Positions 2,188-23,337 of a stretch of DNA of 39,878 nucleotides are shown piece by piece. The notes under the pieces were generated by a model. That model made no database searches and was not told the DNA's origin. It worked only from the letters and a program-made list of their open reading frames with translations. The translations under genes were made by a program, and so were the position numbers. The first letter of the stretch is position 1, and the number at the start of each line of letters is the position of its first letter. Location of the stretch: positions 1 through 39,878 of the forward strand of contig DAOVKF010000001.1 in the NCBI GenBank assembly GCA_030631915.1. The letters run 5' to 3'. Origin of the DNA: Candidatus Omnitrophota bacterium. GTDB taxonomy: Bacteria; Omnitrophota; Gorgyraeia; Tantalellales; Tantalellaceae.

Positions 2188-3000
2188 ATGGGCAGGACAA
2201 AAAGGACGATCGTTTCGGCGGTCTTGACGGCAGTTATGGCTGTCGTTGTTTCCGCGGGCCCCGGCGCTTCTTATGCGCTGGATCTTAACGGGGAATGGCT
2301 GCCGGAAAAGCCGGAATGGGCTCCGGATATTTCTTTCAGCACCACGTTTCTTACAAAGTATATCTGGAGAGGGCAGAATCTCGGGGATGACCCGGTGATG
2401 CAGCCTGATCTTTCCATGTCCAAATGTGGCCTTACCCTGGATATCTGGGGAAGTTATGATACGGGGACGGGAGATGAACTGACCGAACTGGACTATACGA
2501 TAGACTACACCTTTAATGTCGGTGAAATGGCGGAAAAACTGGATATGGGGAGTATGGGAGTTCTGGATCCCTTGAGCCTTTCCGCGGGTTATACATATTA
2601 TACTTTTCCGAATGTGGACTGGGACAGCGAGGGGTTTGATACGCACGAGGTCTATCTGGGGTGCGCCTATGATATCCTTCTGCAGCCGTCTTTCACCTGG
2701 TACTGGGATGTTGACACAGGCCATGGCTGTTATTATACGGCCGGCATAGGGCACACGTTCGAGTTTGACGGAGGCATTTCCGCGGGGCTTGGCATGACAG
2801 CCGCGTATAATGACGAACAGTGGACGGACAGGTCCGGGTGGAGCGACATGGTTTTTTCCGGTGACGTCACTATCCCGTTCTTCACTTATTTTACGGTCAC
2901 ACCGAGCGTCGCGTATTCGGTCGTGCTGGACAGGGACACCTATAATGACGCGCAAAGCAATGAATTTTACGGAGGAGTTTCCATAGGTTTCGCGTATTGA
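2188..3000 (+). CDS. secreted outer-membrane beta-barrel porin-like protein (resembles TorF/Gcw_chp-type putative porins)
   Basis: RBS AAAGGAGGGG. Signal peptide ...VVVSAGPGASYA. YIWRGQNLG motif, alternating aromatic/Gly-rich strands, and a C-terminal ...GVSIGFAY. The family call is from memory of motifs only. Confidence 0.6.
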   Translation: MGRTKRTIVSAVLTAVMAVVVSAGPGASYALDLNGEWLPEKPEWAPDISFSTTFLTKYIWRGQNLGDDPVMQPDLSMSKCGLTLDIWGSYDTGTGDELTELDYTIDYTFNVGEMAEKLDMGSMGVLDPLSLSAGYTYYTFPNVDWDSEGFDTHEVYLGCAYDILLQPSFTWYWDVDTGHGCYYTAGIGHTFEFDGGISAGLGMTAAYNDEQWTDRSGWSDMVFSGDVTIPFFTYFTVTPSVAYSVVLDRDTYNDAQSNEFYGGVSIGFAY

Positions 3001-3030: not shown

Positions 3031-4386
3031 ATGGGGTTGTTGAAAAAGACATTAAAAATACTCCCCTTGCTGGCGGTCGGGACCTCGGCCGCGGCATGGG
3101 GGGATGAACCGACTGCCGCGAGTAACGCAGTGGCGATAGATACTGTGTGGACGCTGGTGGCGGCATTCCTTGTATTCTTTATGCAGCCCGGGTTCGCGAT
3201 GGTCGAGACCGGTTTTACAAGGGCGAAGAACGCGGCCAACATCCTGATGAAGAATCTTATGGATTTCTGTATAGGGTCGATCGCTTTCTGGCTGGTCGGG
3301 TTCGGCATAATGTTCGGAGCAAGCGCTCTGGGTCTTTTTGGAACGAACGGATTTTTCTTAAGCAGCGCGAATGCTTCTACGGGTGACGGATTGTGGCAGT
3401 TCGCTTACTGGATGTTCCAGGTGGTCTTCGCTGCCACAGCGGCGACGATCGTTTCCGGGGCAATGGCTGAAAGGACAAAGTTTCCCGCGTATCTGATCTA
3501 CTCGTTCTTTATCTGCGCTTTGATCTATCCCATAGTGGGCCACTGGATCTGGGGAGGCGGATGGCTTGCGGGTAAGGGCATGGTGGACTTTGCCGGTTCC
3601 ACGGTGGTCCACTCCGTCGGCGGATGGGCAGGCCTGGCAGGCGCGATAGTCCTCGGGCCGAGGCTGGGAAAATATAATAAGAACGGAAGCTCCAACGCTA
3701 TACCCGGGCATAATATACCTTTAGCCGCTTTAGGCGTGTTTATCCTCTGGTTTGGATGGTTTGGCTTTAACGCGGGCAGCACTACGTCCGGCACGAATCT
3801 GAGCATTGCCGTCATCGCGGTGACCACCAATCTGGCGGCGGCGGCGGCAGCCATTACTGCCATGTTCACGGCCTGGGCAAGGTTCGGGAAACCGGATACC
3901 AGCATGGCTTTGAACGGCGCTCTGGCCGGGCTTGTGGCTATAACCGCGCCCTGTGCGAGCGTTTCTCCTTTGAGCGCCGTTATCATCGGTGCCATAGCGG
4001 GGGTAATCGTCGTTCTCAGTGTCGAGCTTCTGGACAAAGTGTTTCATATTGACGATCCTGTGGGCGCGATATCGGTTCACGGGGTTTGCGGCGCGTTCGG
4101 AACGCTTTCCGTGGGCCTTTTTGCCGAAGCAGTGTATGGAGAGGCCAGCGGAATCGGGGCTGTCAACGGGCTCTTCTTTGGAGGCGGATTATCGCAGTTT
4201 TTCACACAGTTATTAGGCGTGGTGTCGGTATTCGCCTGGGTGTTCGGCACGGCCCTGCTCCTTTTTCACGTTATCAAAAAGACCGTGGGGCTCAGGGCTT
4301 CCGATGAAGAGCAGTTAAAAGGACTGGATATCGGTGAGCACGGCATGGAGGCGTATGCCGGATTCCAGATATTTACCACGCAGTAA
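3031..4386 (+). CDS. amtB: ammonium transporter (Amt family) with signal peptide
   Basis: Typical Amt motifs: [57 protein letters not shown]. Confidence 0.95.
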
Positions 4387-4457: not shown

Positions 4458-4799
4458 ATGAAGCTTGTAATCGCGATGATTCAACCGCACAAGCTGCCGG
4501 ACGTGAAGAAAGCGCTTTATGACGCTGAAGTTTACAAGATGACAGTTACCAATGCCCTGGGCTGCGGACAGCAGAAAGGTTTTTCCGAAACCTATCGCGG
4601 GGTGGTCACGGAAGTGAATCTTCTAAAGAAGATAAGACTGGAGGTCGCGGTAAACGAGGATTTTGTCCAGCCGGCAATAGAGGCGATCATAAACGGCGCG
4701 AGGACAGGCAAGATTGGCGACGGAAAGATCTTTGTCCTGGACCTTCCGGAATGCGTAAGGATAAGAACCGGTGAAAAAGGATCCGCGGCGATCGGCTAA
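4458..4799 (+). CDS. glnK: P-II nitrogen regulatory protein, full-length T-loop
   Basis: 112 aa, RBS AAGGAGGGA. T-loop is [16 protein letters not shown] with a Tyr. C-terminal motif [11 protein letters not shown]...RIRTGE. Lies immediately downstream of amtB. Confidence 0.9.
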
Positions 4800-4888
4800 G
4801 AATAAGATAAAAGCCGGGGAGAGGAAAGGTGTCCTCTTGTCCAGAGAGCGGAGAGAGGACGCCTTTGTCATTCATGGGAGGAATGAAG

Positions 4889-5209
4889 ATGAAAAAGATC
4901 GAATGCATAATCCGTTCAGAGATGCTGAAAGGACTGAAAGAGGCCTTGAGACTGGCCGGTGTCGGGGGGATGACCATTACCGAAGTCAAAGGATTCGGAA
5001 GCGAGGCTACACGGCCGGATGCTTATCTGTTCCTGCCCAAGACCAAGGTTGAAATATATGCCGCTGATGAACAGGTGCAGGAGCTGGCCGCAGCGGTTAT
5101 TGATACCTGCCGCACGGGTGAATTAGGTGACGGCAAGATCATTGTTTCGCCGATGGATGAATGTATCCGGATAAGGACGGGCCAGAGAGGTGACGAGGCG
5201 ATATTTTAA
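4889..5209 (+). CDS. P-II family paralog with shortened, divergent T-loop
   Basis: MKKIECII... start is 6 nt after GGGAGGA, so the ORF-track start at 4829 is an upstream extension. [17 protein letters not shown] replaces the canonical [37 protein letters not shown] is retained. Confidence 0.8.
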   Translation: [106 protein letters not shown]

Positions 5210-5264: not shown

Positions 5265-6095
5265 ATGCGGATCAGGCATATGGTGGAAAGCGACCTGCCG
5301 GCTGTTTTGCGCATGGCGTCCGGGGAGGGATGGGTATCCGACATAACCGAGTTCCGGATCTTTATAGAGTTTAATCCATTTGGCTGTTTCATCTGTGCGA
5401 TGGACGGACGGATCCTCGGTTCCATTATGACGTTCTGCCATGCCGAAAGCGCCTGGGTAGGCAACTTTATTGTTTCTAAAGAGTATCGAGGGAGAGGCAT
5501 CGGCAGGAGACTTCTATCGCAGGCGATCGAATATCTGGACAAAAAGAAGAAACAGATCTATGTGAATGCTGCGGATGACGCAAGAAAATTGTACAAAAAA
5601 TTCGATTTCAAGGACGTTATATCGGTGGATCGATGGCAGGGTAAAGCGGTGAAACCCGCCGGGGATACGGAAAATCCCCGGGAAGCCATGTCCGACATTC
5701 TGAGCTTTATCGAGCTGGACGCGCGCATATGGGGGGATGAAAGGTTTGCCCTTATTTCGCGACTTTCATCATTGCGCCATTCTCGGTCATATTTCGGGCT
5801 TCCCGGATTTTTAATGTACGGTAATACGGGGGACAGTATCACTATCGGACCGTGGGAAGTAAAAGGCGGGGACGAAGAGATAGCGGAAAAACTGCTCATT
5901 TCCGGATTATCCGGACTAAGGCCTGGAAGTAAGATCCTTTTAGATGTTCCGGCAGTAAATGAAAAGGCGGCGAGGATCCTGGCCAGACATAAGTTCGAGA
6001 CCGTTGGGTCCACAATGTTTATGTGCCGCGGGAAATCGCCGCGGATCCATTTTAAAGAGATTTTCAGCCTTGCCACAATGGGTTCGATGGGGTAA
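5265..6095 (+). CDS. GNAT family N-acetyltransferase with C-terminal YitH-like extension
   Basis: Acetyl-CoA motif VSKEYRGRGIGRRLLSQAIEYL, and the length is typical of two-domain GNATs. Confidence 0.7.
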   Translation: MRIRHMVESDLPAVLRMASGEGWVSDITEFRIFIEFNPFGCFICAMDGRILGSIMTFCHAESAWVGNFIVSKEYRGRGIGRRLLSQAIEYLDKKKKQIYVNAADDARKLYKKFDFKDVISVDRWQGKAVKPAGDTENPREAMSDILSFIELDARIWGDERFALISRLSSLRHSRSYFGLPGFLMYGNTGDSITIGPWEVKGGDEEIAEKLLISGLSGLRPGSKILLDVPAVNEKAARILARHKFETVGSTMFMCRGKSPRIHFKEIFSLATMGSMG

Positions 6096-6134
6096 ATCAA
6101 ATAACCCGATAAAGCTACATAATTCTGTATAATG

Positions 6135-6163
6135 TTGACAAATCGGGCAGGAAGTGATAAACT
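6135..6163 (+). promoter_or_regulatory. sigma-70-type promoter candidate for the gltB leader
   Basis: TTGACA (6135-6140), 17-nt spacer, TAAACT (6158-6163). Confidence 0.5.
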
Positions 6164-6184
6164 TAATAGTGTTAGGCAATGAGG

Positions 6185-6218
6185 CCCCTGGATACTGTGC
6201 AGTTCCAGGGGTTTTTTT
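6185..6218 (+). terminator. intrinsic terminator T1 in the GNAT-gltB spacer
   Basis: CCCCTGGA...TCCAGGGG stem followed by T7. The hairpin GGC-AATGAG-GCC (6175-6186) overlaps its 5' arm. Confidence 0.75.
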
Positions 6219-6247
6219 ATGCTTCGCCTCCCAAGGGGGATGAAGCA

Positions 6248-6291
6248 GCTCCAGGGACGGCGCAGGACCGGTAAAGGCAAAGAAGCCCTTT
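6248..6291 (+). promoter_or_regulatory. candidate ANTAR-type dual hexaloop hairpin (P1 6248-6263, P2 6273-6291)
   Basis: P1 is GCTCC-AGGGAC-GGCGC with one internal mismatch. P2 is AAAGGC-AAAGAA-GCC(c)TTT. Both loops have A at position 1 and G at position 4. The P2 3' arm is part of the terminator T2 5' arm. Confidence 0.4.
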
Positions 6292-6330
6292 TGAAGCTAA
6301 GAACAAGCTTTGAAGGGCTTTTTTTGTTTT
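6283..6330 (+). terminator. intrinsic terminator T2 about 50 nt upstream of gltB
   Basis: AAGCCCTTTTGAAGCT / AGCTTTGAAGGGCTT stem with a 7-nt loop, followed by TTTTTTTGTTTTT. The sequence is related to the terminator at 1372-1415. Confidence 0.75.
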
Positions 6331-6379
6331 TCAGGCGGCGGTATCCGGGGACGGGTGAGTTCGGGATCTGATATAACAG

Positions 6380-9300
6380 GTGCGCGAAATGAAGAACAAT
6401 GGTTTACCGGAAAAACAGGGCCTTTATGATCCGCGGTTCGAACACGACAGCTGCGGCGTGGGGTTTGTCTGCGATGTAAAGGGTAAAAAATCCAATGAAA
6501 TAATAAGGAAAGCTATAGAGGTCCTTGAAAACCTGAGCCACCGCGGCGCGGTCGGCGCTGATCCAAAGACGGGCGACGGCGCCGGGATACTGTTCCAGAT
6601 ACCGCATGAGTTCTATCTCCGCGTATGCGCTGATACAGGTATTGACCTGCCCCCTTCCGGCAGATATGGCACGGGACTCGTGTTCCTGCCGGCTGATGCC
6701 GGGGAACGCCGGTTCTGTGAAGATACTTTTGGGCGCGTGATCAGAGAAGAGGGACAGTTTTTGCTCGGGTGGCGCGCAGTGCCGGTAGACGATTCGATCA
6801 TAGGTAAAGGCGCAAGAGACACGCAGCCTGTGATAAAACAGATCTTCATCGCCCGGGACAAAGGGATCGACGAGCAGCTTGTTTTCGAACGTAAACTTTA
6901 TGTTATCAGGAAGAGGGTGGAGAATACGGTCCGTTCTTCGAGGATCCGACAGAAGAGTTTTTTCTATATCACCAGTGTTTCGTCAAGGACGGTCAGTTAC
7001 AAGGGGCTGTTAATGCCGGGCCAGGTGAAGCAATATTATCCTGATCTCCGGGACAAGGGGATAAAAAGCGCGCTCGCGATGGTACATTCGCGATACAGCA
7101 CCAATACGTTCCCAACCTGGGACCTGGCCCAGCCGTTCCGATTTCTCGCGCATAACGGGGAGATCAATACTTTAAGGGGGAATATTAACTGGTTCCGCGC
7201 GCGGGAAAGGCTGCTGGAAAGCAGGCTTTTCGGCGATGACATACGGAAGATCAAACCCGTTATCGTCGAAGGTGGCAGCGATTCCGCTATAATCGACAAT
7301 GTTTTCGAGCTTCTGGTCCTCTCGGGCAGATCACTTCCGCACGCGATGATGATGCTTATACCCGGCGCCTGGGAACACGACAGACTCCTGGACGAGGAGG
7401 TCCGGGATTTTTATAAATACCATGCCTGTTTCATGGAACCCTGGGACGGCCCCGCGGCCATAGCTTTCACTGATGGAAGGAGCATAGGGGCTGTGCTGGA
7501 CAGGAACGGCCTTCGTCCTGCGCGTTACATTGTAACCAAAAAGGGCTTTGTCGTAATGGCTTCTGAGGCCGGGGTGCTGAATATCGATCCGTCCGATATC
7601 AGGCTTTCCGGAAGACTGGAGCCGGGCAAAATGTTTTTGATCGATACCGGGACCGGCCGCATTGTCGATGACACCGAGATAAAAAAAGAAGTTTCCACCC
7701 GCCGCCCTTACGGCATGTGGAACAAAGAGAACATGGTTGAACTCGATGGTCTTCCTGACGCGGGGAAAGATTCCCCGGGAATACCGGATATTTTTACTTA
7801 TTTGAAAGCGTTCGGTTATTCCCGTGAGGACCTGAAAATGATCATCGGTCCCATGGCTGAACACGGGACAGAACCGACCGGGTCAATGGGCAATGACATG
7901 CCTCATGCTTTTCTGTCCAAAAAACCCCAGTTGCTTTATAATTATTTCAAGCAGCTGTTCGCGCAGGTCACAAACCCCGCTATTGACCCCATCAGGGAAG
8001 AGATGGTCATGAGTGTTGAAAGTTATGCCGGCGCTCAGAGAAATGTCCTGGATGAAACTCCCCGGCATTCCCGTAAGTTAAAGATAAAGAACCCGATCCT
8101 TTGTGATGAACAGCTTGAAAAGATCCGCGCTATCGATGAAAACGGGTTTAACACAAAGACCATTTCCCTGCTTTTCAGTGTCTCCGACAAGGAGGAGTTC
8201 ATTAAAACACTGGATAGAGTATGTGAAGACTCTGTTTCCGCGATACAGCAGGGATATACTTTTATAATCCTGAGCGACCGCGGCGTAAATGATAAACTCG
8301 CGGCCCTGCCCGTTCTTCTGGCCACAAGCGCGGTGCACCATCATCTTGTGAGGAACGGGATGCGGACGCAGATAGGCATAATGGTTGAAAGCGCGGAACC
8401 CCGAGAAGTACACCATTTCGCTCTTTTATTCGGCTATGGCGCGGACTGCGTGAATCCGTATCTTGCTTATAAAGCGGTCGAGTATCATGTAAAAGAGGGA
8501 CAGGTGCGGCTGGATACTGAAACAGCTCTGAAAAATTACAAAAAAGCCGTGGATAAAGGGATCTTGAAGATACTTTCGAAAATGGGTATATCGACTCTGC
8601 GGAGTTACAGGGGGGCCCAGATATTCGAGGCCCTTGGGCTGAACGAAGACGTTGTTAAAAGGTATTTTACCGGAACGGTATCCAGGATCGGCGGCGCGGG
8701 CCTGGACGTGATCGCAAAAGAGACGGTTTCCAGGCACAAAGAAGCGTATCCTGAGAACAAGAACCGGGAGAAACCCGGTCTGGCCACGGGCGGTATATAC
8801 CAGTGGAAACGGGACGGTGAGTTCCATTTGTGGCGGCCCGAAAGCATTGCCGCGCTCCAGGATTCTGTCAGAAAAGGGGATTACGAACGGTATAAAGAAT
8901 TCGCGCGGCTCATCAACGATCAAACGGGAAACCCCGCGACGTTACGGAGTTTACTTAAATTCAGGAAAACAGACCCCGTGCCGCTTGAAGAGGTCGAACC
9001 GGTCGAGGAGATCGTCAAACGGTTCGCCACCGGCGCCATGAGTTTCGGGTCCATAAGTAAAAGCGCGCATGAATCAATAGCTATCGCGATGAACCGGCTC
9101 GGGGCGAGGTCCAATACAGGTGAAGGCGGCGAGGATCCGGCGCGTTTTGCCGCGCTCCCGAACCATGACTCCGCGCGGAGCGCGGTAAAACAGGTCGCTT
9201 CGGGAAGGTTCGGCGTGACCACGAACTATCTTGTCAACGCCGATGAAATTCAGATAAAGATAGCCCAGGGCGCGAAACCGGGCGAAGGCGGCCAGCTTCC

Positions 9301-10921
9301 CGGCCACAAGGTAAGCGCTATAATCGCGCGCACGCGCTATACGACCCCGGGGGTAACATTGATCTCGCCTCCGCCTCATCATGATATTTATTCGATAGAG
9401 GACCTCGCGCAGCTTATTTTTGACCTGAAAAACGTTAATCCGCGCGCCCGTATAAGCGTTAAACTGGTATCTGAGACAGGCGTGGGGACTGTCGCCGCAG
9501 GAGTCGCCAAGGGACACGCTGACATGATACTTATATCAGGGGGGGACGGAGGGACAGGAGCGTCTCCCAGAAGCTCGATCAGGCACGCGGGGCTTCCATG
9601 GGAGCTGGGCCTTTCAGAAACACATCAGACGCTTGTGTTGAACGATCTTCGGGGCAGGGTGCGCCTGCAGACTGACGGGCAGATGCGCACGGGCAGGGAC
9701 GTGGCCATAGCGGCTTTCCTCGGGGCTGAGGAGTACGGGTTCTCCACTTCTGTCCTGGTCACGCTGGGCTGTGTGATGCTCAGACACTGCCACCTTAACA
9801 ACTGTTCCCTCGGAGTGGCCACACAGGACGAGATGCTCGAGAAAAGATTCCGGGGCAGGCCCGAGTATGTGGTAAATTACATGCGTTTTGTCGCGCGGGA
9901 ATTACGCGGGATCATGGCGGAACTGGGAGTGAGGAGCGTCGATGAGATGATCGGCAGGACAGATCTGCTGGAGGTCAATACGGATCTTGTTCCGGAAAAA
10001 GCGAAAGGGGTTGATTTTGCGCGGATCCTCTATAAACCCGTAGTCCCTGAAAGCACACCCGCGCGCTGTGTCATGTCGCAGGACCACGGTATCGACGACG
10101 TGCTTGACAGAAAGATCATTGAACTTGCCGGAGCGGCGATAGAACAAGCGGAACCCGCGCGGCTCGAGCTTTCCATAAACAATACCAACAGGACCACAGG
10201 CGCGATGTTAAGCGGTGAGGTATGCCGATCGCACGGAGAAGAAGGGCTTCCTGAAGATACCATCCGTTGCAGGTTCACGGGTGTCGCCGGGCAGAGTTTC
10301 GGGGCGTTTCTGGCAAAGGGTATAACCTTTGAACTCGAGGGTATGGCCAATGATTATGTGGGTAAAGGCATGTCCGGCGGCAGGATCGTCATATACCCCG
10401 GCAAGAAAGCCGCTTATAAAGCCGAAGAAAATATTATTATAGGGAATACTGCTTTTTACGGAGCCATATCCGGTGAGGCCTATGTCAGAGGGGTGGCGGG
10501 AGAAAGGTTCTGTATAAGGAATTCCGGGCTCTACGCTGTTGTGGAAGGAGTGGGGGAGCATGGATGCGAATATATGACGGGTGGAAGAGTCGTCGTGCTG
10601 GGCAGGACGGGGAGAAATTTTGCCGCTGGCATGTCCGGCGGTATCGCGTATGTTTACGATGAGGAAGGGATATTTAAGGATAGATGCAATAAGGACATGG
10701 TGCAGATGGAAGAACTTAACGACGACGACAGGACGACGGTCTATGATCTGGTGCATAGCCACCACAAATATACCGGAAGTCCTTGTGCGGAGAAAGTATT
10801 AAGCGCTTTTAACGAAAAAGTGAAAAAATTTATCAAAGTTATGCCCATGGAATACAAGCGTGTTCTGGAAGGTAAGAAGGTAGAAGCCCGCTTAGACCTT
10901 CTGGAGGTGTCTGATGGGTGA
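6380..10921 (+). CDS. gltB: glutamate synthase large subunit
   Basis: About 1510 aa. Has a propeptide then CGVGFV (Ntn Cys), FMN-domain GGDGGTGASP, and a C-terminal GXGXG domain. Start is GTG 6380 or ATG 6389. Confidence 0.95.
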   Translation: MREMKNNGLPEKQGLYDPRFEHDSCGVGFVCDVKGKKSNEIIRKAIEVLENLSHRGAVGADPKTGDGAGILFQIPHEFYLRVCADTGIDLPPSGRYGTGLVFLPADAGERRFCEDTFGRVIREEGQFLLGWRAVPVDDSIIGKGARDTQPVIKQIFIARDKGIDEQLVFERKLYVIRKRVENTVRSSRIRQKSFFYITSVSSRTVSYKGLLMPGQVKQYYPDLRDKGIKSALAMVHSRYSTNTFPTWDLAQPFRFLAHNGEINTLRGNINWFRARERLLESRLFGDDIRKIKPVIVEGGSDSAIIDNVFELLVLSGRSLPHAMMMLIPGAWEHDRLLDEEVRDFYKYHACFMEPWDGPAAIAFTDGRSIGAVLDRNGLRPARYIVTKKGFVVMASEAGVLNIDPSDIRLSGRLEPGKMFLIDTGTGRIVDDTEIKKEVSTRRPYGMWNKENMVELDGLPDAGKDSPGIPDIFTYLKAFGYSREDLKMIIGPMAEHGTEPTGSMGNDMPHAFLSKKPQLLYNYFKQLFAQVTNPAIDPIREEMVMSVESYAGAQRNVLDETPRHSRKLKIKNPILCDEQLEKIRAIDENGFNTKTISLLFSVSDKEEFIKTLDRVCEDSVSAIQQGYTFIILSDRGVNDKLAALPVLLATSAVHHHLVRNGMRTQIGIMVESAEPREVHHFALLFGYGADCVNPYLAYKAVEYHVKEGQVRLDTETALKNYKKAVDKGILKILSKMGISTLRSYRGAQIFEALGLNEDVVKRYFTGTVSRIGGAGLDVIAKETVSRHKEAYPENKNREKPGLATGGIYQWKRDGEFHLWRPESIAALQDSVRKGDYERYKEFARLINDQTGNPATLRSLLKFRKTDPVPLEEVEPVEEIVKRFATGAMSFGSISKSAHESIAIAMNRLGARSNTGEGGEDPARFAALPNHDSARSAVKQVASGRFGVTTNYLVNADEIQIKIAQGAKPGEGGQLPGHKVSAIIARTRYTTPGVTLISPPPHHDIYSIEDLAQLIFDLKNVNPRARISVKLVSETGVGTVAAGVAKGHADMILISGGDGGTGASPRSSIRHAGLPWELGLSETHQTLVLNDLRGRVRLQTDGQMRTGRDVAIAAFLGAEEYGFSTSVLVTLGCVMLRHCHLNNCSLGVATQDEMLEKRFRGRPEYVVNYMRFVARELRGIMAELGVRSVDEMIGRTDLLEVNTDLVPEKAKGVDFARILYKPVVPESTPARCVMSQDHGIDDVLDRKIIELAGAAIEQAEPARLELSINNTNRTTGAMLSGEVCRSHGEEGLPEDTIRCRFTGVAGQSFGAFLAKGITFELEGMANDYVGKGMSGGRIVIYPGKKAAYKAEENIIIGNTAFYGAISGEAYVRGVAGERFCIRNSGLYAVVEGVGEHGCEYMTGGRVVVLGRTGRNFAAGMSGGIAYVYDEEGIFKDRCNKDMVQMEELNDDDRTTVYDLVHSHHKYTGSPCAEKVLSAFNEKVKKFIKVMPMEYKRVLEGKKVEARLDLLEVSDG

Positions 10922-12359
10922 TCCTCAGGGTTTTCAGAAAGTCGGGAGGCAAACGTCGGAAGGCAGACCGGTTCGCGAGCGCCTCAGGGATTACAGAGAG
11001 GTCCCGGTCATGCGTAAAGACGAACAGTCAAAGGAGCAGGCATCGCGCTGTATGGACTGCGGCACGCCTTTCTGCCACTGGGGATGTCCTCTCGGGAATT
11101 ATATCCCCGAATGGAACGATTTCATGTTTGACGGTCACTGGGAAAAGGCTTTTGAATTATTACAGGCAACTAACGATTTTCCGGAGTTTACGGGTAGGGT
11201 ATGTCCGGCAACCTGCGAATACGCGTGCGTGCTGGGCATAAATGACGATCCTGTGACCATACGCGAGAACGAACTCGCCGTAATAGAATACGCGTTCAGG
11301 AACGGGATGATAAAACCCCGGCCGCCCGTAACACGGACCGGGAAAAATGTCGCTGTTATAGGTTCAGGTCCGGCCGGGCTTGCCTGCGCAGCGCAGCTTA
11401 ACAGAGCGGGCCACAACGTTGTCGTATATGAAAAGGACGATAAGATCGGCGGCATTCTCCGTTACGGCATACCGGATTTCAAGCTTGAGAAAGGGGTCAT
11501 TGACAGACGTCTCTCCCTGATGAGGGAAGAAGGGATAAAGTTCGAGGCATCCGTCAACGTGGGCATGGATTACGACGCGCGGACATTACTGAAGGAATAC
11601 GACGCGGTGTGCCTCGCCGGAGGTTCCCGCGTACCGCGCGATCTCACAGTCGAAGGTCGCGGTCTGGAAGGCATATATTTCGCCATGGATTATCTGACGC
11701 AGTCGAACAGAAGAATATCCGGCGGGAGAATACCCGCAGACCGGCTTATAGACGCCGGGGGCAGGAAAGTCGTCGTGATCGGGGGAGGAGATACAGGTTC
11801 TGACTGCGTTGGGACCGCCGGCAGGCAGGGCGCTTTGAGCGTGACGCAGATCGAACTTTTGCCGAAGCCCCCGGAAAGCCGCGCCGAAGATCAACCCTGG
11901 CCGGTATACCCGGTGCTTCTGAAAACCTCGACCAGTCATGAGGAAGGAGGAGACAGGATATGGTCGGTCAGGACAAAGAGATTCGCCGGCGAAAAAGGCC
12001 GTGTTAACAAACTCGGATGTGTACGCGTGGAATTTGTCAGGACAGATGAAAAAGCTCCTCCCGTGATGAAAGATATCCCTGGCAGCGGGTTTGAGATAGA
12101 AGCGGACCTTGTTGTTCTCGCTCTGGGTTTTATCCGTCCCGAACATGGCGGCCTACTCACGGAGCTGGGCGTCGAATTGGATGAACGCGGGAATGTCAGG
12201 ACCGGCGAAGGGCTCATGACCTCTGTCAGCAAAGTCTTTTCCGCCGGAGACATGAGGCGAGGCCAGTCGCTTGTCGTATGGGCGATCTCAGAGGGCCGCA
12301 GGGCCGCGCATTCCATTGACGTTTTTCTGACGGGACAAAGCAACCTTCCTTATATGTAG
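10914..12359 (+). CDS. gltD: glutamate synthase small subunit (NAD(P)H-dependent)
   Basis: 8-nt overlap with gltB. Cys clusters CMDCGTPFCH and CPATCEYAC. Dinucleotide folds VAVIGSGPAGLA and VVVIGGGDTGSD. Confidence 0.95.
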   Translation: MGDPQGFQKVGRQTSEGRPVRERLRDYREVPVMRKDEQSKEQASRCMDCGTPFCHWGCPLGNYIPEWNDFMFDGHWEKAFELLQATNDFPEFTGRVCPATCEYACVLGINDDPVTIRENELAVIEYAFRNGMIKPRPPVTRTGKNVAVIGSGPAGLACAAQLNRAGHNVVVYEKDDKIGGILRYGIPDFKLEKGVIDRRLSLMREEGIKFEASVNVGMDYDARTLLKEYDAVCLAGGSRVPRDLTVEGRGLEGIYFAMDYLTQSNRRISGGRIPADRLIDAGGRKVVVIGGGDTGSDCVGTAGRQGALSVTQIELLPKPPESRAEDQPWPVYPVLLKTSTSHEEGGDRIWSVRTKRFAGEKGRVNKLGCVRVEFVRTDEKAPPVMKDIPGSGFEIEADLVVLALGFIRPEHGGLLTELGVELDERGNVRTGEGLMTSVSKVFSAGDMRRGQSLVVWAISEGRRAAHSIDVFLTGQSNLPYM

Positions 12360-12375: not shown

Positions 12376-12404
12376 TTGACTAATCGTTCGAACTTCGAGA
12401 TAAT
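12376..12404 (+). promoter_or_regulatory. sigma-70-type promoter candidate for the nuoE-like operon leader
   Basis: TTGACT (12376-12381), 17-nt spacer, GATAAT (12399-12404). Confidence 0.55.
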
Positions 12405-12433
12405 TACCGGGCTGACACGCTGTTTGCGTCAGC

Positions 12434-12482
12434 AGGGAACAAAGACGTTCTTTCCTGCGGAGGGAGGAGTGTCTTTTTTTTT
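12434..12482 (+). terminator. leader attenuator: hexaloop hairpin (12434-12453) overlapping an intrinsic terminator (12441-12482)
   Basis: Terminator: 13-bp GACGTTCTTTCCT / AGGGAGGAGTGTC stem (with G-U pairs), GCGG loop, T9. Competing hairpin: AGGGAAC-AAAGAC-GTTCTTT, 7 bp with a hexaloop (A1, G4). Confidence 0.65.
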
Positions 12483-12548
12483 GATCAAAAACTCATGACC
12501 GTCCTTTTAGGCGGTCTCAGAGAATGAGAACCAGGAGCAAAAAAAAAG

Positions 12549-13040
12549 ATGACGACCGCAGACGCGAAAAGAGTCGATACTATACTAAAAGGCAGAGAAG
12601 GCGCTTCCGGCGAATTGATCGAGGCGCTGCAGGATATCCAGGATGCCTTTAAGTACCTTCCGGAAGAGGCGCTGAGAAGTGTGTCGGAAAAGATGGCAGT
12701 GCCCCTTATCGAAGTATTCAGAGTTGCGAATTATTATAAGGCGTTTACGCTTCAGCCGCGCGGCAGGCATCTCCTTACGGTCTGCATGGGGACCGCGTGC
12801 CATGTGAGAGGAGCGCCCAGGTTCCTGGATGAGGTCCTCGGCCAGCTTGACATCAAACCCGGAGAGACTACCGAAGACGGCGACTTTACCGTGGAAACGG
12901 TAAACTGCCTCGGCGCGTGCGCTTTAGGCCCGGTCGTGGTGCTTGACGGAAAATATCATGACCATATGACCGCCGGGAAATTACGCGCTTTGATCCAGGG
13001 GACCCTCTCTAAGAAGGCAAAAAAAACAGGTGATAGATGA
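12549..13040 (+). CDS. NuoE/HoxE-like thioredoxin-fold [2Fe-2S] ferredoxin subunit
   Basis: CMGTACHVRGA ... VNCLGACALGPVVVLDG motif set. Confidence 0.85.
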   Translation: MTTADAKRVDTILKGREGASGELIEALQDIQDAFKYLPEEALRSVSEKMAVPLIEVFRVANYYKAFTLQPRGRHLLTVCMGTACHVRGAPRFLDEVLGQLDIKPGETTEDGDFTVETVNCLGACALGPVVVLDGKYHDHMTAGKLRALIQGTLSKKAKKTGDR

Positions 13041-14890
13041 GAACCATAGCTTGCATGGAAGATCTGGAAAAACTGGCCGAGCAAAAGAGAAAAGAAAACC
13101 GTGGATACAGCAGGACAGTTACTCTCTGCGCAGGCACCGGATGTTGCGCGTCAGGATGCCTTTCAGTGATAAAAGCGTTACGTGAAGAGCTGGAGCGTTT
13201 GAAATTAAAGGAAAAGATCAAGATCAGGGCTACCGGTTGCCACGGTTTCTGCGAACAGGGGCCGCTCATGGTCATAGAACCCGGGAATATTTTTTATTGC
13301 CGGATCAAGCCCGAGGATATCCCTGAGATCGTTGCCGAGACATTGCAGAAGGACCGGCTGATAGAAAGGTTAATGTATACCGACCCTTCTTCGGGCAGAA
13401 AGATCGCCTGTGAGGCGGAGATCCCTTTTTATAAAGCGCAGGACCGGACAGTACTGGGCCAGAATAAACTGGTTGACCCGTGCGCGGTCGGGGATTATAT
13501 AGCGAATGGCGGCTATTCCGCGTTAGTCAAGGTCCTGACATCCATGAAGCCCGAAGAGGTGATAGACGAGATCAAACGGTCCGGGCTCAGGGGCAGGGGC
13601 GGCGGCGGGTTCCCTGCCGGTAGACAATGGGAGTATTGCAGACAGGCCGAGGGTGAACCCAAGTATGTTATCTGCAACGCGGACGAAGGCGACCCCGGCG
13701 CTTACATGGACAGGAGTGTTCTCGAGGGCAACCCTCATGTCGTTATCGAGGGCATGCTTATCGGAGCGTTCGCCATCGGCGCGAAGCATGGTTTTATATA
13801 CGTCAGGAATGAATATCCGCTCGCGGTGGAACATTCAAAGATCGCGGTCGAGCAGGCCGGGAAGCTGGGGCTCCTGGGAACGAATATCCTCGGGACGGAT
13901 TTTTCGTTTGACATAAAAATAGCCAGAGGCGGCGGCGCGTTCGTGTGCGGCGAGTCGACCGCGTTAATGGCCTCTCTGGAAGGCATGGTCGGTGAGCCCA
14001 GGCCAAAGGATATCCATACGACGGACAAAGGGTTTAAGGACCTGCCGACAAATCTGAATAATGTTGAGACCTGGGCCAATGTGCCTTTTATCATCAATAA
14101 GGGGTCTTCCTGGTTCGCCTCAAAAGGCACCTCCGGGAGCAAGGGAACAAAGATCTTTGCCCTGACCGGACAGATAAGAAATACCGGGTTGGTCGAGATC
14201 TCCATGGGGACCACTCTGCGGGAGATCATATATGATATAGGCGGCGGATCCGCTACGGGGAAAAAGATAAAGGCGGTCCAGACAGGCGGGCCGTCCGGGG
14301 GCTGTCTTCCCGAGGAACTCTTTGATCTGCCCGTGGATTTCGAGGCGTTGGCCGAAGCGGGTTCAATGGTGGGTTCAGGCGGGATGGTGGTAATGGACGA
14401 GGATACCTGCATGGTCGATGTCGCCAGGTATTTTCTGGAATTCCTTCTGGACGAATCATGCGGTAAATGTGTTCCGTGCAGGATCGGCCTGAGCCGCATG
14501 CTGGAAATAATAAAAGATATCACGGAAGGCAGGGGAACGGAAGAAAAACTGGAACTCCTGAAAGACACGGCTGAAACCGTATCCGTGGCTTCATTATGCG
14601 CTTTGGGCAAAACAGCCCCTAACCCGGTGCTATCCACGATCAAATATTTCCGGTCCGAATACGAAGCACATATAAAGAAAAAACAATGTCCCGCCGGGGT
14701 GTGCAGGGAATTGATACATTATTCCATTGACCGGGACAAATGCACGGGCTGCGGCGTTTGTTTAACGGCCTGTCCCCATGAGGCCATTACGGGCGAAAAA
14801 GGAAAGGTTCACAGGATCGAGGACGATAAATGCCGGAAATGCGGTATTTGCGGGGAAGCGTGTAAATTCGGCGCGATCAAGCTGTCATAG
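13037..14890 (+). CDS. NuoF/HydB-type NAD(H)- and FMN-binding flavoprotein with N-terminal [2Fe-2S] and C-terminal 2x[4Fe-4S] domains
   Basis: ATGA overlap with the previous gene. GLRGRGGGGFPAG, ICNADEGDPGAYMDR, ESCGKCVPCR, and C-terminal CTGCGVCLTACP / CRKCGICGEAC. Confidence 0.9.
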   Translation: MRTIACMEDLEKLAEQKRKENRGYSRTVTLCAGTGCCASGCLSVIKALREELERLKLKEKIKIRATGCHGFCEQGPLMVIEPGNIFYCRIKPEDIPEIVAETLQKDRLIERLMYTDPSSGRKIACEAEIPFYKAQDRTVLGQNKLVDPCAVGDYIANGGYSALVKVLTSMKPEEVIDEIKRSGLRGRGGGGFPAGRQWEYCRQAEGEPKYVICNADEGDPGAYMDRSVLEGNPHVVIEGMLIGAFAIGAKHGFIYVRNEYPLAVEHSKIAVEQAGKLGLLGTNILGTDFSFDIKIARGGGAFVCGESTALMASLEGMVGEPRPKDIHTTDKGFKDLPTNLNNVETWANVPFIINKGSSWFASKGTSGSKGTKIFALTGQIRNTGLVEISMGTTLREIIYDIGGGSATGKKIKAVQTGGPSGGCLPEELFDLPVDFEALAEAGSMVGSGGMVVMDEDTCMVDVARYFLEFLLDESCGKCVPCRIGLSRMLEIIKDITEGRGTEEKLELLKDTAETVSVASLCALGKTAPNPVLSTIKYFRSEYEAHIKKKQCPAGVCRELIHYSIDRDKCTGCGVCLTACPHEAITGEKGKVHRIEDDKCRKCGICGEACKFGAIKLS

Positions 14891-14898
14891 GAGAATAA

Positions 14899-15612
14899 AT
14901 GAGTGAATATGTAACCCTTACAATTAACGGCGCTAAAGTAAGGGCGCCTCGAGGTACATCAGTATTGGACGCCGCGCTGGATTACGGGATATGCATACCG
15001 CACCTCTGTCACATGCAGGGGGTGATCCCCACGGGTGTCTGCCGTCTGTGTATCGTGGAGGTTATTGAAAAAGGCAGGTCAAAAGTTACTACCTCCTGCA
15101 CTCTTGAAGCGGAGGAAGGGATGGTAATTTTAGCTCATACGGACAAGATCCTTAAGGCGAGGAAGAATATCGCCGAGATGCTGGTAGCCGAAGCGCCTAA
15201 TTCACGCGCCATCCAGGACATTGCTCTCAAGTGCGGCGTTAAAGACGTCCGGTATCCTTTCCGCAATAAGGATTGCGTTTTATGCGGACGATGCGTCAGA
15301 GCCTGCACCGAGATATGGCGGTCCAGGTCCCTGGGTTTTGTGGGGCGCGGAGAACAGCGGCATGTCGCCCTTCCGTTCGACGAACGTCCGGAATTCTGTA
15401 AAAGATGCAATGCCTGTATCGATCTCTGTCCCATGACCATTACTCCGTGTGACGGGCCCATGAAAAAAGGCGAGGAATATTTTTGCGGGAAATGCGAGTC
15501 TCAACTGTCAATGTCGGAAGATTTTGTGGATAGTTGCGTGTGGTGCAGACTGGGAGAAGGGTTTGACGTGACAGGCAGACACGCCGGAAGAAAACAGGAG
15601 GATAAAAGATGA
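14899..15612 (+). CDS. NuoG/HydA N-terminal-like [2Fe-2S] + [4Fe-4S] ferredoxin (no catalytic domain)
   Basis: ITLTINGAKVRAPRGTSVLDAALDYGICIPHLCH, CRLCIVEV, CVLCGRCVRAC, CKRCNACIDLCP. Confidence 0.8.
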   Translation: MSEYVTLTINGAKVRAPRGTSVLDAALDYGICIPHLCHMQGVIPTGVCRLCIVEVIEKGRSKVTTSCTLEAEEGMVILAHTDKILKARKNIAEMLVAEAPNSRAIQDIALKCGVKDVRYPFRNKDCVLCGRCVRACTEIWRSRSLGFVGRGEQRHVALPFDERPEFCKRCNACIDLCPMTITPCDGPMKKGEEYFCGKCESQLSMSEDFVDSCVWCRLGEGFDVTGRHAGRKQEDKR

Positions 15613-17195
15613 ATTTGCAGCAGCCGAATGCTAACGACGTAACACAGACAGCGAACAGGTCCCGGAGCGTTGTTCCCGGGTCGGGATTATGCACGCGGTG
15701 TATTGACGGGTGCCGCGGGAATTGCGAAGTGTTTAAAGCGACCTTCAGGGGCCGCGAAGTGATCTATCCCGGCCCGTTCGGCGAGATCTCGGCCGGCGGA
15801 GACAAAGAATACCCGGTGGATTATTCACATCTTAACATACAGGGATACGCCATGGGCGCCAAAGGGCTTCCCGAAGGCGTGGAGGCCGGCCCGGACACCG
15901 CAACCTTTCCCGCTGTGAACACCGAAACCGGATACGGATGGGATAAAAAGGTAAAGATGAGGGTCCCGGCTTTTACAGGGGCGCTCGGCTCCACGGAAAT
16001 AGCCAGAAAGAACTGGGAGCATTTCGCGATCGGAGCGGCTATTTCCGGCGTTACTCTGGTCTGCGGAGAGAATGTTTGCGGCATTGACCCGGAATTGGAA
16101 CTGGACCCAAAGGGAAAGATCAAAAAAGCCCCTGACATGGACAGAAGGATAGAAACCTATAAGAAATTTCATGAGGGCTACGGAGAGATACTGGTCCAGA
16201 TGAACGTCGAAGACACCCGTTTGGGCGTCGCGGAATATGTAAGAAAGAAACACGACCTGGAGACCATTGAGCTTAAATGGGGACAGGGGGCCAAGTGTAT
16301 CGGAGGAGAGATCAAGGTCAAGAGCCTGGAAAGGGCGCTGGAACTTAAAAAAAGGGGATATATCGTTACTCCTGATCCGACGCTCAAGGCGGTCCAGAAC
16401 GCCTATAAAGCCGGAGCTATCAGGGAATTTGAACGCCATTCCCGCCTTGGATTCGTGACGGAAGAGGCTTTCTTCCAGGAGATCAAGCGTCTCAGGGATC
16501 TGGGGTTTAAGAGGATAACCCTGAAGACCGGCGCGTATCCGATGAGGGAACTTGCCATGGCCGTTAAATATTCGTCAATGGCCGGGATAGATCTTCTCAC
16601 GATAGACGGGGCTCCGGGCGGAACCGGGATGAGTCCGTGGAGGATGATGGAAGAGTGGGGGGTCCCGACGTTCTATCTCCAGTCCATGACTTATGAGATA
16701 TGTGAAAAACTAACGAAGAAAGGGATGCGGGTCCCGGACATCGCGATCGCGGGAGGGTTCTCCACCGAAGACCACATCTTCAAGGTGCTGGCCATGGGAG
16801 CGCCTTACGTGAAGGCGGTCTGCATGGGAAGGGCATATATGATCCCGGGCATGGTCGGCAAGAATATCGGATACTGGATCGATGGCAAGGACCTGCCTTC
16901 AACGGTTTCCCGATACGGCAAGACCCCGGAAGAGATATTTGTATGCTATGACGAGCTTGTCGAGAAATACGGAAACAGGATGAAAGAGATCCCCCTCGGC
17001 GCGATAGGGATCTACAGCTTTGCGCAGAAACTGAAAGTCGGGCTTCAGCAGCTCATGGCCGGGAGCAGGAATTTCAGGCTGGATACCATATCAAGGAAAG
17101 ACCTCATGTCCTTAACGGAAGAAGCCGCGAAAGTATCAGGCATTCCTTACGTGATGGACGCTTACAGGGAAGAGGCGGAAGCGGTACTTGGATAA
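15609..17195 (+). CDS. stand-alone glutamate synthase FMN-domain (GltS synthase-domain) protein with N-terminal Cys cluster
   Basis: ATGA overlap with the ferredoxin gene. CTRCIDGCRGNCEVF cluster. LTIDGAPGGTGMSP parallels ISGGDGGTGASP of gltB in this window. No Ntn glutaminase domain and no GXGXG domain. Confidence 0.85.
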   Translation: MNLQQPNANDVTQTANRSRSVVPGSGLCTRCIDGCRGNCEVFKATFRGREVIYPGPFGEISAGGDKEYPVDYSHLNIQGYAMGAKGLPEGVEAGPDTATFPAVNTETGYGWDKKVKMRVPAFTGALGSTEIARKNWEHFAIGAAISGVTLVCGENVCGIDPELELDPKGKIKKAPDMDRRIETYKKFHEGYGEILVQMNVEDTRLGVAEYVRKKHDLETIELKWGQGAKCIGGEIKVKSLERALELKKRGYIVTPDPTLKAVQNAYKAGAIREFERHSRLGFVTEEAFFQEIKRLRDLGFKRITLKTGAYPMRELAMAVKYSSMAGIDLLTIDGAPGGTGMSPWRMMEEWGVPTFYLQSMTYEICEKLTKKGMRVPDIAIAGGFSTEDHIFKVLAMGAPYVKAVCMGRAYMIPGMVGKNIGYWIDGKDLPSTVSRYGKTPEEIFVCYDELVEKYGNRMKEIPLGAIGIYSFAQKLKVGLQQLMAGSRNFRLDTISRKDLMSLTEEAAKVSGIPYVMDAYREEAEAVLG

Positions 17196-17337: not shown

Positions 17338-17393
17338 AATTACAACATATAAGTTGTAATTTATTTGACAATACGACATATATGTTGTATAAT
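17338..17393 (+). promoter_or_regulatory. cassette promoter with two operator-like palindromes
   Basis: TTGACA (17365-17370), 17-nt spacer, TATAAT (17388-17393). Inverted repeat AATTACAAC-N6-GTTGTAATT at 17338-17361 and ATACGACAT-AT-ATGTTGTAT at 17371-17390. Confidence 0.6.
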
Positions 17394-17402
17394 TGTTCTA
17401 CA

Positions 17403-18122
17403 ATGAAAAAAGAGAAAATTTCAAGGTATCAGGACACGGTGCTCAGGGTTTTGGCGAACAAGATAGATGACTTCTATCTTGCCGGCGGCACCGCACTCTC
17501 TTTGTTTTATTTTCAACACAGATTATCTGTCGATCTGGATTTTTTTACTCCACATTTCTCATATAAGAGAATAGAAGAGATCGTTAGATATCTGGAAGGC
17601 GCTTTAGTGAAAGAAATTAAACTTATTGGACAAACGCTGGAAAAGGATAAGGCGAGGGTGCGGATCTATAATATATATTTCACGAAAAGAGATACCCTGA
17701 AAGTCGATTTTATCGAGGATCTTTTCAAACTCATTAAGCGGCCGAAAATAGTAGATGGCGTAAAAATATTATCTTTAGAGGATATATATCTGAGAAAACT
17801 GTATGCTATCGCCGGCATGATCCCTTTTCAGGACATAACAGGGAAAGAACGGTTTTTAGGCGGCAGGATAGAAGCAAAAGATTTTTATGATGTTTATTTC
17901 CTTTCGAGCACATTTATGTCTCTTTCGAGATTCGCGGAAAAATATACCGATAATACCGTAAAAGAAGGATTGATCAATTGGTTCCGCACTTATGACAGGA
18001 TGACCATGATGGACGATCTTTTAAGCTTGAATATAACTGAAAAAATAGACTATAAAAGCATGGATAAACATTTTAATGAAGAAATAGACAAGATCATCCA
18101 AAGGTATATAGAAAGAATATGA
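17403..18122 (+). CDS. nucleotidyltransferase, AbiEii/AbiGii (DUF1814)-type toxin family
   Basis: GGTALSLFYFQHRLSVDLDFF motif. The ATG at 17403 is about 10 nt after the -10 box, so the mRNA is probably leaderless. The ORF-track start at 17382 lies inside the promoter. Confidence 0.8.
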   Translation: MKKEKISRYQDTVLRVLANKIDDFYLAGGTALSLFYFQHRLSVDLDFFTPHFSYKRIEEIVRYLEGALVKEIKLIGQTLEKDKARVRIYNIYFTKRDTLKVDFIEDLFKLIKRPKIVDGVKILSLEDIYLRKLYAIAGMIPFQDITGKERFLGGRIEAKDFYDVYFLSSTFMSLSRFAEKYTDNTVKEGLINWFRTYDRMTMMDDLLSLNITEKIDYKSMDKHFNEEIDKIIQRYIERI

Positions 18123-20045: not shown

Positions 20046-20057
20046 CTTTCATCTCCT

Positions 20058-23307: not shown

Positions 23308-23337
23308 CTCCTCTCCTCTTCGTTCCTTTCAGCGCGA

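Follow-up and report, generated by a model that had tools for sequence, protein, structure and literature searches.

The window analysed here is a stretch of 39,878 nucleotides (nt), a 39.9-kb contig of a Candidatus Omnitrophica metagenome-assembled genome (MAG) with an identical copy in GCA_023135115.1 and scaffold_584 (sample SAMN18200499). Its left third is occupied by a nitrogen-assimilation cluster with every gene on the + strand. Within this cluster, the leader of the glutamate synthase genes gltBD carries a promoter followed by two terminators, T1 and T2, each overlapped by a small hairpin with a six-nucleotide loop (hexaloop). Comparison with related loci suggests, with a probability of roughly 0.7, that this leader is a two-step transcription attenuator under the control of the GAF-ANTAR protein encoded at 545-1264. 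The leader comprises the following features:

6135-6163, + strand: sigma-70-type promoter TTGACA-17-TGaTAAACT (TTGACA 6135-6140, TG 6155-6156, TAAACT 6158-6163)
6175-6186, + strand: P2′ hexaloop hairpin GGC-AAUGAG-GCC (loop 6178-6183; A1, G4), putative antiterminator of T1
6184-6218, + strand: intrinsic terminator T1 (stem 6184-6212, U-run 6212-6218)
6221-6246, + strand: spacer hairpin GCUUCGCCUCC-CAA-GGGGGAUGAAGC (12 pairs, CAA loop) between T1 and T2, present in predicted folds
6248-6263, + strand: candidate P1 hairpin GCUCC-AGGGAC-GGCGC (A1/G4), with an internal U-C mismatch; doubtful
6273-6291, + strand: P2 hexaloop hairpin with core GGC-AAAGAA-GCC at 6276-6287 (loop 6279-6284), extendable to AAAGGC/GCC(c)UUU, putative antiterminator of T2
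6285-6331, + strand: intrinsic terminator T2 (stem 6285-6318, U-runs to 6331)

The promoter, both terminators, and the overlap of each terminator with a hexaloop hairpin lie where a first-pass annotation of this DNA had placed them. The promoter matches the consensus at 10 of 12 positions, carries the TG of an extended −10 element, and ranks second in the first 20 kb of the window; transcription would start near 6170, some 4-5 nt ahead of the P2′ hairpin. T1 is built from the arms CCCCTGGA..TCCAGGGG, lengthened by a G6184-U6212 pair (12 pairs), with a stem energy of −15.9 to −20.8 kcal/mol (z = −3.0) and seven T at 6212-6218. Because this stem is bulged, T1 was missed by a simple consensus scan. 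T2 has a 13-pair stem of −14.5 kcal/mol, or −24.6 kcal/mol (z = −3.5) with the flanking A- and U-tracts, and its U-tract consists of T7 at 6319-6325, one G, and T5 at 6327-6331. The most likely start of gltB is the gene caller's choice, ATG 6389, which lies 58 nt past T2, and a consensus scan found no promoter-like site between 6331 and 6389.

All three hexaloops of the leader (hairpins at 6175, 6248, and 6273) have A at loop position 1 and G at loop position 4 (A1/G4). The 3′ arm of P2′, GCC 6184-6186, also forms the three basal pairs of T1, and the 3′ arm of P2, GCC 6285-6287, forms the three basal pairs of T2. Hairpin and terminator are mutually exclusive at both sites because they share this GCC arm.

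The leader was compared within a set of 161 sequences (1.85 Mb), namely the window and 160 fetched gltB neighbourhoods, numbered with the prefix L. These neighbourhoods are mostly Omnitrophota-like MAGs with a GltB identity of 65-79%, the remainder being Nitrospira and others; metagenome and GTDB scans with GltB found no relative above 79% amino-acid identity. The closest relative, L001, has a GltB 77% and an ANTAR protein 75% identical to those of the window. It has no leader before gltB and carries a promoter-P2′-T1-P2-T2 cassette between its ANTAR gene and amtB, which shows 80% column identity to that of the window and retains all five elements. The T1-type unit is common to six loci (the window, L001, L005, L009, L027, and L082), all with an invariant TTGACA, a −10 box in register, and an invariant hairpin GGC-AA[U/A/C]GA[N]-GCC, so that this hairpin is conserved in relatives, a point that the first-pass annotation had singled out for checking. 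The T1 stems vary in sequence yet pair: RNAalifold on the six homologues gives 13 pairs, 6 of which have compensatory double changes. Hairpin-bounded sequences were used for this comparison because MAFFT set the 3′ arms out of register.

The placement of these units varies. The T1-type unit of L005 lies 19 nt before the gltB start, with a separate strong inverted repeat, a terminator-like hairpin, upstream of the promoter, and this arrangement points to a leader element rather than a mere terminator of the operon before it. L009, L027, and L082 have it about 370-460 nt before gltB, ahead of a small helix-turn-helix (HTH)-like reading frame. Promoters match the consensus at 9-12 of 12 positions in 14 of the 22 GGC-type units listed. 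Homologues of P2 include GGC-AUAGAC-GCC (L001), GGC-AAAGAA-GCC (L002 and L030), and GGC-ACAGAC-GCC (window, 1365), and T2 belongs to a recurrent terminator family, GCCCUUUU.AAGC-loop-GCUU.AAAGGGC, with members at 1373-1407 of the window and in L001, L002, L030, L004, L084, L088, L041, and L118. Units also precede the glnA-ANTAR operons of L082 and L083, which implies autoregulation. A search for orthologues of the GNAT-gltB leader found the exact protein only on same-contig copies from one sample, with at most one mismatch; GNAT homologues of 55-65% identity occur in other contexts, namely nif, ABC-transporter, and glnA clusters.

Two further elements of the leader were considered and set aside. 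The spacer hairpin at 6221-6246 is stable and lies in a window-specific insertion that the L001 cassette does not have; as a repeat element it was rejected, since it is single copy in the window. Leader-peptide attenuation was likewise rejected: the open reading frame from ATG 6219 (51 codons) has no ribosome-binding site, and its L001 counterpart has 8 codons.

The association of A1/G4 hexaloops with terminators exceeds chance. The 161 sequences yielded 1378 hairpin-plus-U-run terminators, and units were defined as hairpins of at least 3 base pairs (bp) with a 6-nt loop and a 3′ arm overlapping the terminator base. Among such overlapping hexaloops, loop position 4 is G in 44.5% (26% background) and loop position 1 is A in 35% (26% background), with no further position standing out; A1 and G4 occur together in 18.6% versus 6.5%. 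When positions 1 and 4 are tabulated over 735 distinct strong terminators, the A/G combination occurs on 108 terminators, whereas the other 15 combinations average 23, with G/G the next highest at 62 and A/A at 19. An additional comparison involved no pre-selection for pairing: A..G.. 6-mers located 2-10 nt before strong terminators have at least three complementary flanking pairs in 16.3% of cases, compared with 6.0% genome-wide and 6.0% for other 6-mers at the same place.

This enrichment is restricted to one lineage. A1/G4 units occur on 104 of 574 terminators in the Omnitrophota-like group and on 4 of 161 terminators in Nitrospira and other loci, which is chance level; homologues of the window ANTAR protein were found, among the fetched loci, only in the Omnitrophota-like group. 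The nitrogen cluster has five strong intergenic terminators on the + strand, and four of them carry an A1/G4 unit (hairpin/terminator positions 1365/1373, 6175/6185, 6276/6285, and 12434/12444), with P of about 5e-6 at an empirical per-terminator chance of 3.2%, and the fifth, at 2064/2070, has a G1/G4 loop. The motif GGCANNGNNGCCC is present four times in the window versus 0.47 expected, and none of 100 shuffles gave four. Tandem arrangement recurs as well, with seven pairs of terminators 40-160 nt apart carrying A1/G4 hairpins on both members and 25 more carrying one on a single member.

The possibility that the loops are simply A-rich because they represent the A-tract of bidirectional terminators was rejected, as the enrichment at position 4 is for G and not A (A/A 19, A/G 108) and the flanking complementarity is specific to A..G.. 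loops. The apical loop of the terminator was also tried as a second ANTAR loop and dismissed, since no A1/G4 enrichment is seen there over all unit-carrying terminators; several apical loops of the T2 family read AnnGnnn, and the window T2 loop, AAGAACA, misfits.

The candidate reader of these hairpins is the protein encoded at 545-1264, which consists of a GAF domain and a C-terminal ANTAR domain (Pfam GAF_2 7e-24, ANTAR 1.6e-20). The ANTAR domain aligns to EutV (6wsh, 3e-12; also 6ww6), Rv1626, and NasR. An arginine, a lysine, and a tyrosine of EutV hold the flipped-out G4 in the EutV-RNA complex (PMC8934654), and the counterparts of these G4-contacting residues, R142, K149, and Y164, are kept in the window protein, given an assumed 2-residue offset between the chain and paper numbering (PMC8934654). 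The GAF-ANTAR architecture was described as uncharacterised in 2012 (PMC3369931), and a 2025 review does not include it among the characterised antiterminators while listing dual hairpins for all ANTAR proteins (PMC12591593). The GAF domain of the window protein is nearest to a GAF-domain protein of unknown function (3e0y), followed by the PtsP/EI-Ntr GAF domains, and it also resembles Nlh1. Glutamine and 2-oxoglutarate are the signals to which the GAF domain of EI-Ntr responds. This similarity suggests a nitrogen-status ligand for the GAF domain, and the physiological context suggests glutamine or 2-oxoglutarate as the signal.

These features can be combined into a mechanism. The promoter at 6135-6163 would direct initiation near 6170. 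In the default state, the emerging RNA would fold T1, and transcripts that escape would fold T2, such that transcription stops before gltB; placing the terminators in series would multiply the tightness of the off state. In the active state, an ANTAR dimer would bind the A1/G4 hexaloop of GGC-AAUGAG-GCC as it emerges and later that of GGC-AAAGAA-GCC, locking GCC in the mini-hairpin and depriving the terminator of three basal pairs next to the U-tract. In intrinsic termination, the basal pairs beside the U-tract are needed to reach into the RNA-DNA hybrid. The shortened stem would thus lie too far from the RNA 3′ end for polymerase release, and polymerase would read into gltBD. The active state would correspond to nitrogen limitation, sensed via the GAF domain with its resemblance to those of PtsP (EI-Ntr) among others; this signal direction is deduced from the gene content, i.e., the glutamine synthetase-glutamate synthase (GS-GOGAT) genes and AmtB. 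T1 and T2 would also halt read-through from the amtB-glnK-GNAT operon and place it under the same control. The same protein could gate sister units before a sigma-like gene and before NuoEF-like genes, as well as a weaker unit before the amtB operon; together with the units before glnA in relatives, these would constitute a nitrogen-assimilation regulon. ANTAR-type antitermination at both terminators of the gltBD leader appears probable and well supported by the comparative evidence.

Several observations weigh against this interpretation. The 3-bp hairpins are not stable alone (−3.7 kcal/mol, z = −0.2). Low stability is not surprising for a hairpin that relies on protein binding, and the significance of the hairpins rests on the comparative pattern and not on folding energy because they are thermodynamically insignificant. 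The P2 stems are invariant and, for that reason, do not contribute covariation of their own. No Rfam family matches the leader, the window at gathering thresholds returning one tRNA only; at E up to 10, the best matches within 5900-6500 reach 14-17 bits versus thresholds of 39-54, with PyrR and NsiR1 being noise, and none of the Rfam cis-regulatory RNAs, the glutamine riboswitch and PyrR site among them, scores up to its gathering threshold in the leader. The hairpin scans themselves required pairing, which leaves the flank test and the position-1/position-4 tabulation as the independent measures. An ANTAR homologue lies in the fetched flanks of 13 of the 161 sequences, a count that covers flanks only. 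Finally, T1 has no first hairpin, with the −10 box ending at 6163 and P2′ beginning at 6175, just past the predicted start.

The first hairpin of T2 is also questionable. The first-pass annotation had described a classic dual-hexaloop layout before T2, and both hairpin sequences are indeed there, separated by a 9-nt linker; the layout itself is not supported. The candidate P1 at 6248-6263 has an A1/G4 loop, contains a U-C mismatch, appears in neither the minimum-free-energy nor the centroid fold of the nascent RNA, and lies in a window-specific insertion of about 23 nt that is missing from L001. An equally loose hairpin occurs at 3.9% of random positions, by a definition tailored after the candidate had been seen. 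The conservation of P1 is judged only against the paralogous L001 cassette because no true GNAT-gltB leader orthologues were found. There is about one chance in three that the candidate P1 is functional.

Related loci provide a clearer view of how many hairpins such a unit contains. Among units with GGC/GCC stems, the distance between the −10 box and the hairpin is bimodal, at 21-25 nt or 6-12 nt. The gap of the former class is filled by a first hairpin, RAC-A[A/G][U/C]GA[U/A]-GUY, that starts 6-7 nt past the −10 box and is followed by a 5-6-nt linker and a P2 of the form GGC..GCC. This pattern corresponds to the canonical ANTAR P1-linker-P2 layout and is found in L002, L003, L004, L020, L026, L030, L041, L084, L106, and L118. 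In this layout, 93% of cells pair in register versus 17-51% when the partners are slid, and the basal P1 pair alternates between A-U and G-C. Overall, an A1/G4 hexaloop hairpin lies 2-14 nt upstream of 20 of 103 units (19% versus 4.9% background): dual units exist, in a minority.

T1 of the window belongs to the 6-12-nt class, for which no upstream hairpin is conserved in the six loci. With about 4-5 nt of predicted transcript ahead of P2′, a first hairpin would not fit, and T1 is therefore viewed as a single-hexaloop attenuator. Both P2′ and P2 fit the minimal single-hexaloop site, i.e., one stem-loop with A1 and G4. A broader proposal can be made tentatively, at somewhat below even odds: Omnitrophota would possess a reduced ANTAR attenuator cassette in which a sigma-70 promoter starts the transcript a few nucleotides from a single 3-bp A1/G4 hexaloop hairpin seated on the terminator base, with no first hairpin. 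This cassette would often be arranged in tandem, would have moved between targets (amtB, gltB), and would be read by a glnA-linked GAF-ANTAR one-component sensor that gates a glutamine/ammonium regulon. If true, one hexaloop would suffice for co-transcriptional antitermination, contrary to the two-hairpin requirement of EutV.

Other explanations of the leader deserve consideration. T1 and T2 might be unregulated tandem terminators of the amtB-glnK-GNAT operon with incidental hexaloops, gltBD being expressed from another start or by leaky read-through. In its favour, the 90 nt that separate the GNAT stop codon from T1 contain no further strong terminator, the small hairpins lack thermodynamic significance, and the L001 cassette likewise follows a gene, that of the ANTAR protein. 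This explanation is nevertheless improbable, as six loci have a strong conserved promoter separating T1 from the preceding gene, the stretch 6331-6389 offers no promoter-like site, and the A1/G4 enrichment, its restriction to one lineage, and the flanking complementarity would be left unexplained. The narrower alternative raised in the first-pass annotation, that T1 is solely the terminator of the upstream operon, is disfavoured by the recurrence of the promoter-hairpin-T1 block in five other loci and by the separate strong inverted repeat ahead of the L005 promoter. Stopping upstream read-through is, moreover, compatible with an attenuator role for T1 and T2.

Equally unlikely is that the attenuators are real and have another reader, either a different RNA-binding protein or a DNA-binding repressor acting on the GGC-N6-GCC inverted repeat past the start site. 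The conserved A1 and G4 are asymmetric, as in the ANTAR code and not as in a palindromic operator; the same hairpin is found far from promoters yet always on a terminator base (T2, window 1365, and L001 5257); and the ANTAR domain encoded in the cluster retains the G4-contact residues. These points outweigh the facts that GGC-N6-GCC, at about +5 to +17 in T1-type units, likewise forms a short inverted repeat at the DNA level, that ANTAR genes are present in only 13 of 161 flanks, and that GAF-ANTAR targets are uncharacterised (PMC3369931; review PMC12591593). It is very improbable that the promoter and T1 form a small-RNA gene of about 45-50 nt acting in trans, e.g., as an ANTAR decoy like EutX/Rli55. 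The off state would anyway yield a short RNA spanning about 6170-6218, EutX offers a precedent (PMC8934654), and there is a sub-threshold similarity to NsiR1 (14.3 bits versus a gathering threshold of 39, E = 4.6), although this Rfam match is noise. In the terminated RNA, however, the terminator out-competes the hexaloop hairpin, and the unit of L005, 19 nt before gltB, is hence a leader there, with those of L009, L027, and L082 at about 370-460 nt. ANTAR-controlled attenuation of gltBD remains the preferred explanation.

The genes and sister units of the nitrogen cluster are as follows:

39-548, + strand: 3′ end of glnA
545-1264, + strand: GAF-ANTAR protein gene, its start overlapping the glnA stop (ATGA)
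1365-1415, + strand: sister unit GGC-ACAGAC-GCC (1365-1376) on terminator 1373-1407 plus U-run, between the ANTAR gene and the sigma-like gene
1396-1959, + strand: gene for a small sigma-70-region-4-like protein
2064-2111, + strand: weaker sister unit GAC-GCAGGC-GUC (G1, G4) on terminator 2070-2105, upstream of the secreted-protein/amtB operon
2188-3000, + strand: gene for a predicted secreted protein, with a signal-like N-terminal segment by eye and no Pfam match
3031-4386, + strand: amtB
4458-5209, + strand: two P-II genes
5265-6095, + strand: GNAT acetyltransferase gene
6389-10921, + strand: gltB (Pfam GATase_2, Glu_syn_central, Glu_synthase, GXGXG)
10914-12359, + strand: gltD (Pfam Fer4_20, Pyr_redox_2)
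12376-12481, + strand: sister unit before the NuoE/NuoF-like genes, with promoter TTGACT-17-GATAAT (12376-12404), a hairpin (12411-12433), P2 AGGGAAC-AAAGAC-GUUCUUU (12434-12453), and terminator 12444-12473 plus U-run
downstream of gltD, + strand: NuoE/NuoF-like genes and a Glu_synthase-domain gene

The 2064 unit is uncertain, as RNAfold favours a GACG-CAGG-CGUC tetraloop; similar units occur in L002 (2964), L024, L045, and L058. The sigma-like protein encoded at 1396-1959 has about 187 amino acids and a weak Sigma70_r4_2 match as its sole Pfam-type match. Its homologues are found in 16 of the 161 sequences searched (among them L004, L007, L013, L017, L019, L030, L037, and L048), where the gene sits ahead of amtB in Omnitrophota nitrogen clusters, with a porin-like gene intervening in some loci. 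In almost every case, one or two hexaloop-terminator units stand upstream of this gene, with a U-run that abuts its start, and its product may represent a second regulatory tier.

The region 12376-17195 comprises the third sister unit followed by genes for a NuoE-like protein, a NuoF-like protein, a 2Fe-2S/4Fe-4S protein, and a 528-amino-acid Glu_synthase-domain protein; these genes may provide glutamate synthase with an alternative or electron-input module that is controlled in the same way. The same nuoE/F genes follow gltD in L038. The leader of a carB paralogue (20083-23307, − strand) contains a fourth GGC-AnnGnn-GCCC hairpin, GGGC-AAAGAG-GCCC, on the − strand at 23390-23402 (region 23378-23446); it is nested in a longer stem, and a promoter-like site, TTGAAA-16-TATTAT, lies 17 nt ahead of it. 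The hairpin is not followed by a U-run terminator and could be an ANTAR site acting otherwise, e.g., on translation or RNA stability, or a chance occurrence.

Other putative control elements are seen in the relatives. Sigma-54-like boxes (GGCAC-N5-GTGC or GCAC-N5-TTGTGC) occur 20-30 nt upstream of AAC-type hexaloop-terminator units in L004 (about 5240), L013 (about 5050), L018 (about 4985), L044 (about 4920), L087 (about 4820), and L115 (about 760). Most are 0.9-1.2 kb upstream of the glnA 3′ match, i.e., before glnA, and the unit with such a box in L115 lies 271 nt before gltB. Their position suggests that initiation control by an enhancer-binding protein may be stacked on ANTAR-type attenuation in these relatives. 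A palindrome, TGCCTAA-N3-TTAGGCA (with variants), that is probably a protein-binding site lies upstream of a small Fis-type HTH gene preceding gltB in L013, L015, L021, L030, L033, L040, L045, L047, L048, and L051; the window has the GNAT gene in place of this HTH gene and does not carry the palindrome.

Beyond the nitrogen cluster, the region 17382-18637 encodes an AbiEii-family nucleotidyltransferase toxin followed by an HTH_3 protein, a type IV toxin-antitoxin-like pair. A perfect promoter, TTGACA-17-TATAAT, precedes the pair at 17365-17393, and the pair separates the nitrogen cluster from a run of glutamine-amidotransferase genes. This run, at 18648-35497, includes asnB-like, carB, carA, a second carB, purF-like, pyrG, guaA, and purL genes. 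With glnA, amtB, glnK, and gltBD only a few kb away, the contig resembles a "glutamine economy" supercluster.

ANTAR antitermination of nitrogen genes is established, and such a gltB leader is expected biology and not a surprise. Computational matches to the ANTAR RNA, with A1/G4 hexaloops and a P2 that overlaps the terminator, have been reported before P-II, amtB, glutamine synthetase, and glutamate synthase genes in Firmicutes, Proteobacteria, Actinobacteria, and Bacteroidetes (PMC3369931, PMC3369936), and control of glnA and the nitrogen cluster by the ANTAR protein NitR in Clostridium saccharobutylicum/acetobutylicum is mentioned in PMC4676874. EutV needed the first hairpin in vivo (PMC3369931). 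The minimal ANTAR site was later proposed by Walshe et al. (2022) to be a single hexaloop for an ANTAR dimer (PMC8934654; structure 6WW6, extra loop in EutX), with single loops expected where polymerase sets no time limit, e.g., in sequestration by small RNAs (PMC8934654).

Against this background, the leader appears to represent a known mechanism in a new phylum, with T1 as its putative single-hexaloop variant. It would extend the ANTAR system to the uncultured phylum Candidatus Omnitrophota and name a probable regulon consisting of the sigma-like gene, amtB-glnK, gltBD, and the NuoEF-like genes, plus glnA in relatives. GAF-ANTAR proteins, a large architecture, would gain concrete candidate RNA targets. 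The conserved promoter-single hexaloop-terminator class offers a natural case for asking whether a single hexaloop is sufficient for co-transcriptional antitermination, a question that the EutV structure raised and did not settle. At about 60 nt with a consensus sigma-70 promoter, the cassette should for these reasons lend itself readily to tests in vitro or in E. coli and could be used as a small part for synthetic gene regulation.

The leader shares several traits with the ANTAR dual-hexaloop RNAs (EutV/eut of Enterococcus faecalis, NasR/nasF, and AmiR/amiE; Ramesh et al. 2012, PMC3369931), namely (i) mini-hairpins with A1/G4 6-nt loops, (ii) a hairpin 3′ arm that overlaps the 5′ arm of an intrinsic terminator, (iii) location in leaders of P-II, amtB, and glutamine/glutamate synthase genes, as in the Desulfotomaculum acetoxidans and Pelobacter carbinolicus matches, (iv) several units per regulon and transcription unit with an ANTAR protein encoded nearby, and (v) canonical P1-linker(5-6 nt)-P2 units in the relatives of the window. 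In contrast to those RNAs, T1 has one hairpin at the predicted 5′ end of its transcript and the first hairpin of T2 is doubtful; the window stems are 3 bp long with a near-invariant GGC/GCC; the GAF-ANTAR regulator is a one-component protein and not a response regulator, a NIT-ANTAR protein, or AmiC-controlled; and Candidatus Omnitrophota is not among the reported phyla, with no Rfam model matching the window units. The single-hexaloop sites of Walshe et al. (PMC8934654) likewise have one A/G4 hexaloop, and the residues that hold G4 are kept in the window protein. Unlike those sites, the window loop lies on a terminator and would have to act co-transcriptionally. NitR is encoded by an ANTAR-domain gene directly after glnA and is thought to control GS-GOGAT genes by antitermination. 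Set beside it by description only, the window system is alike in that its ANTAR gene follows glnA, whereas the N-terminus of NitR is of the receiver type and an antisense RNA takes part in the Clostridium system.

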